Of a stretch of 13,968 nt of DNA, positions 18 through 813 are shown piece by piece. The translations under genes and the position numbers were made by a program. The notes beneath the pieces are model-generated. The model saw nothing but the letters and a program-made list of their open reading frames with translations. It had not been told where the DNA came from and ran no database searches. Numbering within the stretch: the stretch's first letter is position 1; each line of letters begins with the position of its first letter. Source of the DNA: a virus (lineage: Duplodnaviria; Heunggongvirae; Uroviricota; Caudoviricetes); the IMG/VR virus record IMGVR_UViG_2537562191_000040, positions 1 to 13,968 of that record. One strand, written 5' to 3'.

Positions 18-813
18 TACGGACGACTGGCTGAAGAGAGAGATACAGCGCGTATACGATGAAAATCATCAGGTGTACGGTGTGCGTAAAGTCTGGCGTC
101 AGTTGTTACGGGAAGGAATCAGGGTGGCCAGATGTACAGTGGCACGTCTCATGGCGGTTATGGACTTGCCGGTGTTCTCCGGGGTAAAAAGGTCCGTACG
201 ACCATCAGCCGGAAAGCCGTTGCCGCAGGCGACCGCGTAAACCGTCAGTTCGTGGCAGAACGACCTGACCAGCTGTGGGTGGCTGATTTTACTTACGTCA
301 GCACATGGCAGGGCTTCGTCTATGTGGCGTTTATCATTGATGTGTTTGCCGGATACATCGTGGGGTGGCGGGTCTCATCGTCTATGGAAACGACATTCGT
401 GCTGGATGCGCTGGAGCAGGCGTTGTGGGCCCGTCGTCCGTCTGGCACCATCCATCACAGCGATAAAGGCTCTCAGTATGTGTCACTGGCCTATACGGAG
501 CGACTAAAAGAAGCCGGATTACTGGCATCAACAGGGAGTACAGGCGACTCGTATGACAACGCGATGGCTGAGAGCATCAATGGTCTTTACAAAGCGGAGG
601 TAATACACCGTAAGAGCTGGAAAAACCGTGCAGAAGTGGAACTGGCCACACTAACGTGGGTGGACTGGTATAACAATCGACGATTGCTGGGAAGGCTGGG
701 CCATACTCCTCCGGCAGAAGCAGAAAAAGCTTATTATGCTTCCATCGGAAACGATGATCTGGCAGCCTGAGTTCACAGATAAAACACTCTCCAGGAAACC
801 CGGGGCGGTTCAA
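18..813 (+). mobile_element. IS3-family insertion sequence (IS629/IS3411-like), 3' part only: orfB remnant plus right terminal repeat ending ...GGTTCA
   Basis: Encodes an IS3-family OrfB (DDE transposase) C-terminal region. It is near-identical to the inverted copy at 12995-13768; homology to that copy stops at about 813, where flanking sequences diverge. The 5' part of the element (orfA, start of orfB) is absent and replaced by the loxP-like sequence. Confidence 0.8.
22..770 (+). pseudogene. IS3-family transposase OrfB, N-terminally truncated and frameshifted
   Basis: ORF-track proteins 1..240 and 132..770 are two frames of one transposase. Compared with the inverted copy (ATGGGACTTGCC), this copy reads ATGGACTTGCC at about 161-170, a 1-bp deletion in a G run that breaks the frame. 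Confidence 0.8.

Follow-up and report, generated by a model that had tools for sequence, protein, structure and literature searches.

The window, by which we mean the whole 13,968-nt stretch of DNA analysed, is the entire draft contig AEZU02000036.1 of assembly GCA_000194335.2, from Escherichia coli 4.0522. Within it, a 12.18 kb lambdoid prophage late region is bracketed by two inverted 3' parts of IS1203, an IS3-family element near-identical to IS629. The interior was annotated from the RefSeq annotation of the 100%-identical region in strains 7-54 11A and RM9131, and from Pfam, ARAGORN, Rfam and the gene calls of the source contig. The features are listed below.

1-21: ATGCTATACGAAGTTATTACG, untrimmed 3' end of the 454 loxP mate-pair (paired-end) linker, not genomic DNA
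22-812, + strand: left IS1203 as assembled, IS positions 519-1310 (orfB 3' part and right terminal repeat)
813-815: ACG, inner copy of the target-site duplication of the left IS, inside a DUF4014 gene
816-12494, + strand: lambdoid prophage nin/late/lysis region, with small hypothetical genes among others
2067-3218, + strand: Dcm-type C5 cytosine methyltransferase
3186-4175, - strand: Methyltransf_35, 'putative O-methyltransferase'
4175-5566, - strand: GHKL-type ATPase (HATPase_c_3, GHKL/MORC-like)
after the GHKL-type ATPase: DUF1367 and DUF1364/YbcO
6952-7506: DUF1133/Q-like antiterminator
7646-7721 and 7822-7898: tRNA(CAT), annotated Ile, and tRNA-Arg(TCT), both from ARAGORN
8068-8499: TerB, with a DUF3927 gene also in the region
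8668-8860, + strand: sRNA STnc100 (146 bits, Rfam)
8861-8922, - strand: sRNA AgvB (anti-GcvB; 96 bits, Rfam)
9070-10923: NanS-p-like SASA esterase
11073-11288: holin, with YdfR also in the lysis region
11688-12221: lysozyme
12495-12994, + strand: N-terminal part of the IS-interrupted KilAC antirepressor gene, with ANT domain
12992-12994: GTT, inner copy of the target duplication of the right IS, inside the KilAC antirepressor gene
12995-13766, - strand: right IS1203 as assembled, IS positions 1310 down to 539
13767-13968, + strand: 5'-truncated DUF968 gene fragment, with its frame open from the junction and a PF06147 match

The inverted repeat and the prophage interior

A repeat search of the window found two pairs of perfect inverted arms, 162-813/12994-13645 (652 nt) and 42-163/13645-13766 (122 nt), each 100% complementary. 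The two pairs are offset by 1 nt and together make up a 772-nt inverted repeat whose only difference is a 1-bp indel: GG in the left copy, at 162-163, and GGG in the right. The repeat is real and far beyond chance. Each arm codes for the integrase core (rve) of an IS3-family transposase. Pfam places PF00665 in both copies (E=4e-28 and 7e-28), together with rve_3 and rve_2, and finds an HTH_21 domain in the right copy. The right terminal repeat ...CCCGGGGCGGTTCA closes both. With the copies stopping at IS positions 519 and 539, neither orfA nor the programmed -1 frameshift region is in the window, an absence that we attribute to the contig ends.

The original prediction, made from the letters of the window, described inverted IS copies around about 12.2 kb of prophage, identical apart from a 1-bp deletion in a G-run of the left copy, each consisting as assembled of the orfB 3' part and the right terminal repeat. 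This description is essentially correct, and the same layout is present in strain 7-54 11A. The coordinates it gave have to be adjusted: the left IS occupies 22-812 instead of 18-813, as 1-21 are linker and 813-815 the duplication, and the right IS ends at 13766 instead of 13768. Alignment to complete IS1203, which it had proposed for defining the truncation points, places them at positions 519 (left) and 539 (right).

Between the IS copies, the nin region carries a three-gene insert at 2067-5566, in which the Dcm gene lies on the plus strand and the Methyltransf_35 and ATPase genes are convergent to it on the minus strand. In a PADLOC search of this trio, only Dcm matches, to generic type II methyltransferase models, and the other two have no defence-system match. 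The trio may represent a modification or defence module carried by the phage. Further along, STnc100 and AgvB are located back to back between the DUF3927 gene and the NanS-p-like esterase gene. The segment 6952-10923, with its Q-like antiterminator, tRNA(CAT), tRNA-Arg(TCT), NanS-p esterase and lysis genes, presumably follows the late layout of Stx phages. The stx genes are absent from this segment, and the TerB and DUF3927 genes occupy that position. Searched against phage and plasmid records, the whole window gives partial matches to Stx-phage-like late regions, covering at most 37%. The locus is chromosomal O111 prophage DNA.

IS1203 at the same sites in complete genomes

The window was compared with 5,426 complete E. 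coli genomes, and it matches those of O111:H8/NM type at 100%. At least 80% of the window is carried in one place by 157 of the 5,426; the matches listed span window positions 813-13766. Many O111-type genomes are identical over the whole of 813-13766, and their matches end at 13766. In strain 7-54 11A (O111:H8, NZ_CP077574), the match extends over 22-13766 with 0 mismatches and 1 gap. This strain is the only one among the matches listed from the 5,426 genomes that has an IS on both sides.

Both IS1203 copies in 7-54 11A are 1310 bp long, mutually identical and in opposite orientation. The left copy of the window aligns to the complete element at the same site with 0 mismatches and 1 gap. The left IS is flanked as TATAACGACG|IS|ACGTGGTATG, a target duplication of ACG/ACG, and the right IS as ...GCTGTT|IS|GTTTTTG, a target duplication of GTT/GTT. 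The full element begins with the left terminal repeat TGAACCGCCCCGG... The IS3-family features found are a DDE (rve) domain, TG...CA terminal repeats, a length of about 1.3 kb and a 3-bp target duplication, with the left terminal repeat, the 1310-bp length and the complete target duplications read in 7-54 11A and not in the window.

The insertions interrupt two genes. In 7-54 11A the left IS divides the DUF4014 gene; in RM9131 (NZ_CP028429) this gene is uninterrupted, though annotated as frameshifted. The right site in RM9131 also holds a full IS1203, annotated with a programmed frameshift, which splits the KilAC antirepressor gene. In both strains the C-terminal part of the antirepressor lies beyond the full IS, and the annotation reads 'phage antirepressor KilAC, missing C-terminus'. 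The full copies found at both sites in complete genomes contain orfA/orfB and carry the annotations 'programmed frameshift' and 'AL1L pseudoknot'. In addition, the IS segment occurs at about 35-40 or more places in each O111 chromosome.

These genomes bear directly on the original claims that both copies lack their 5' half and that neither can transpose. Neither claim is supported at the level of biology: complete genomes have the full 1310-bp IS1203 at the same sites, with orfA/orfB and target duplications. The IS1203 of O111:H8 prophages (7-54 11A, RM9131) is 100% identical in nucleotide sequence to the window copies over IS positions 519/539-1310 and shares with them the insertion sites, the right terminal repeat, the 3-bp duplications and the rve DDE domain. 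In contrast, the window copies end at 519 and 539, and one is without a G. These differences fall at the two ends of the contig, and artefacts of assembly and sequencing are the best explanation for them. By comparison with a single relative, 7-54 11A, we infer that the left IS is probably full length in strain 4.0522. IS1203 in O111 prophages has already been annotated, and the locus is an ordinary one.

Two inverted copies of one IS, here around 12.18 kb, are also what IS-flanked invertible segments and composite transposons have. Unlike these, each IS at this locus has its own duplication, and a single orientation is observed. A composite transposon was ruled out, since each IS in 7-54 11A has its own matched duplication, ACG/ACG and GTT/GTT. 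A separate 3-bp duplication on each IS indicates two independent insertions and not one moved unit. The matched duplications further indicate that the segment between the IS copies of 7-54 11A is not inverted. The inverted isomer, which would still give a 22-13766 match in the complete-genome search, was not seen: 7-54 11A, the sole two-IS genome among the matches listed, is collinear. Both orientations of the segment were thus not found among the matches listed from the 5,426 complete genomes. RecA-dependent inversion of the 12.2-kb segment between 1.3-kb inverted IS repeats is physically plausible, and could occur in principle.

Linker bases and a second prophage at the contig ends

The window begins with ATGCTATACGAAGTTAT, whose first 17 bases are a perfect half loxP. 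Its first 21 bases are identical (21/21) to the last 21 bases of TCGTATAACTTCGTATAATGTATGCTATACGAAGTTATTACG, a sequence given as a 454 / mate-pair linker (PMC5199103) and used, as the 454 double-stranded linker, as a mate-pair adapter for trimming (PMC7038657). The window agrees in every respect with loxP linker contamination of Roche 454 drafts: its bases 1-21 equal the 3' end of the linker and stand at the very start of a contig. The linker has 42 bases and the window holds 21, the contig starting within the linker. Where the window has linker bases, the complete IS1203 of 7-54 11A has CGCAGTGCCCGTGCGCAGCAC. Because the first 21 bases are linker, the left 'truncation' at IS position 519 is the end of a library fragment. 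The junction between lox and IS sequence is found in none of the 5,426 complete E. coli genomes, and in none of the viral, metagenome and species-representative genome contig collections.

The perfect half loxP could be taken for a real lox site in bases 1-17, whether a natural loxP of P1 type or a scar of Cre/lox engineering beside the IS. We consider this hardly credible. The match to the linker runs 4 bases (TACG) beyond the lox portion, the source is the end of a draft-assembly contig, and none of the 5,426 complete E. coli genomes has the junction. P1-like genes were not found in the window by RefSeq annotation of the matching region or by Pfam. Phage and plasmid records cover at most about 37% of the window, and no listed match reaches bases 1-21. 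The 21/21 match including TACG, together with the lack of P1 genes, led us to rule out both forms of lox site.

The linker also encodes part of a deposited protein. An exact look-up of the product of the ORF at 1-240 returned a single record, on contig AEZU02000036.1. This is EIH78470.1 (EC40522_2866, 'hypothetical protein', Escherichia coli 4.0522, 79 aa), and its start, MLYEVIT, is linker-encoded. EIH78470.1 is an artefactual database protein, cut early by a probable homopolymer error. Exact look-ups of the products of the frameshifted 212-aa ORF and of the 248-aa right ORF gave no match; the gene caller had chosen other starts.

The homopolymer in question is the GG at 162-163, about 140 bases inward of the linker/IS junction. 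All comparison copies have GGG, and the GG variant occurs in 1 of the 5,426 complete genomes. The carrier is NZ_CP017251.1 (O157:H7 86-24 NADC 5570), at 2871735-2872033, where GG is possibly also a homopolymer error of that assembly. The loss of a G in the left copy (GGG to GG) probably reflects a homopolymer that was under-called where coverage is thin, close to the end of the contig. The original prediction had taken this frameshift as a sign of independent decay, which the rarity of GG and the position of the homopolymer near a contig end do not favor.

At the right end, window positions 13740-13968, which contain the junction of IS position 539 with non-IS DNA and the 202 bases after it, are found at 100% in O111 genomes at a different locus. 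In RM9131, this junction between IS position 539 and the DUF968 gene is at about 4.83 Mb, some 3.15 Mb from the prophage of the window, in a prophage that adjoins zur and a fragment of the tRNA-dihydrouridine-synthase (dusA) gene. A 5'-truncated IS1203 is fused there to a 5'-truncated DUF968 gene (positions 7256-8229 of the extracted region). The same arrangement is seen at positions 3019-3992 of one IMG/VR contig. This fusion, in which IS1203 position 539 meets the interior of a DUF968 gene in the second O111 prophage, is a conserved natural deletion junction.

The junction and the following 202 bases are identical in the window and at the zur/dusA-fragment locus. The neighbors on the other side are different: the right end of the IS abuts a prtN-family gene there and the KilAC antirepressor gene in the window. 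The locus in the second prophage is the source of the last 202 bases of the window. The truncated IS1203 beside DUF968 is identical to the right copy of the window over IS positions 539-1310, so that the two copies cannot be told apart by sequence alone. The join of antirepressor, IS and DUF968 is present in 0 of the 5,426 complete genomes, where the best coverage is 85% and ends at 13766. The original statement that the truncated ends border unrelated sequence therefore holds literally, and the borders themselves are a 454 linker on the left and the DUF968 gene of another prophage on the right.

We also located the right contig end relative to repeats. The 400 nt beyond it are single copy in most O111-type genomes among the matches listed, and a contig end at a repeat boundary was rejected for this reason. 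A contig that stops 202 nt into single-copy DNA suits a spur of read length rather than a real junction. Of the 10 genomes that appear among the matches listed for both loci, 9 have the window prophage and the DUF968/IS locus in direct orientation; a real crossover in that orientation would delete about 3.15 Mb. The exception is SD134209 (NZ_CP029692.1, O111), in which the two are on opposite strands, at 2.17 Mb and 4.96 Mb. This arrangement implies a large chromosomal inversion between the two loci.

Origin of the truncated ends

Taken together, the most likely reading is that the IS pair consists of ordinary full-length IS1203 elements in an O111-type prophage, and that the truncations are draft-assembly artefacts. 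Strain 4.0522 is O111:H8-like, and its library was made with 454 loxP-linker mate pairs. Two IS1203 copies would have inserted in opposite orientations into a lambdoid prophage, one in the DUF4014 gene and one in the KilAC antirepressor gene. Short-read assemblers fail on repeats of such high copy number. Unable to get past the IS, a high-copy exact repeat, the assembler would have left a contig end within each copy. On the left, the consensus would have run out in a read that starts in the linker, fusing 21 linker bases to IS position 519. On the right, the assembler would have followed reads from another, genuinely truncated IS1203 beside DUF968. The 202-base right end is most likely such a repeat-induced chimeric spur. 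The real elements at both sites would most likely be intact, transposition-competent IS1203 that arrived by two independent insertions.

It is also conceivable, though we think it unlikely, that the right junction is real and only the left end an artefact. The full IS1203 in the antirepressor gene would then have recombined with the truncated IS1203 beside DUF968, with a large inversion as the outcome. With 100% identity over 772 nt, the two IS segments are good substrates for recombination, and EHEC is known for large rearrangements mediated by prophages and IS elements. The different orientation of the loci in SD134209 means that large inversions occur in the lineage, and in a background like that of SD134209 an IS-IS crossover would give exactly this junction without a deletion. 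Against this, the join is absent from every one of the 5,426 complete genomes, and the usual orientation of the loci would entail the deletion of about 3.15 Mb. A real junction also leaves unexplained why the contig breaks off after only 202 nt of single-copy DNA, and at its opposite end a library artefact is proven. The particular event that it would call for in 4.0522 is if anything slightly more doubtful: IS1203 copies in two lambdoid prophages, over 3 Mb from each other, would have crossed over, and the resulting large inversion would have brought the truncated IS end and the DUF968-Q side of one prophage beside the lysis region of the other.

Read literally, the contig has no more of the IS than positions 519-1310 and 539-1310, with a 1-bp indel between the copies, as if both were genuinely 5'-truncated, decaying relics with genomic borders and the frameshift a product of independent decay. 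This is very improbable. The left border is synthetic 454 linker and not genome, full-length copies exist at the identical insertion sites in complete genomes, and the right copy breaks off at precisely the same IS position as another truncated copy that already existed elsewhere. The original prediction had itself named an assembly artefact, in the form of a collapsed repeat, as the finding that would speak against it. Essentially such an artefact is present, consisting of contig-end contamination and a repeat-induced join and not of a collapsed repeat. The lost 5' halves, the unrelated borders and the frameshift are best explained as 454 mate-pair draft-assembly artefacts.

These results call for caution, as draft contigs may carry remnants of mate-pair linkers and chimeric ends that resemble decaying mobile elements. 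Such contig artefacts can even yield deposited 'proteins', EIH78470.1 being an example. In biological terms, the locus is a routine case of the proliferation of IS1203 in O111 E. coli prophages. The inverted full-length pair could mediate inversion of the late region, which would be unremarkable if so.
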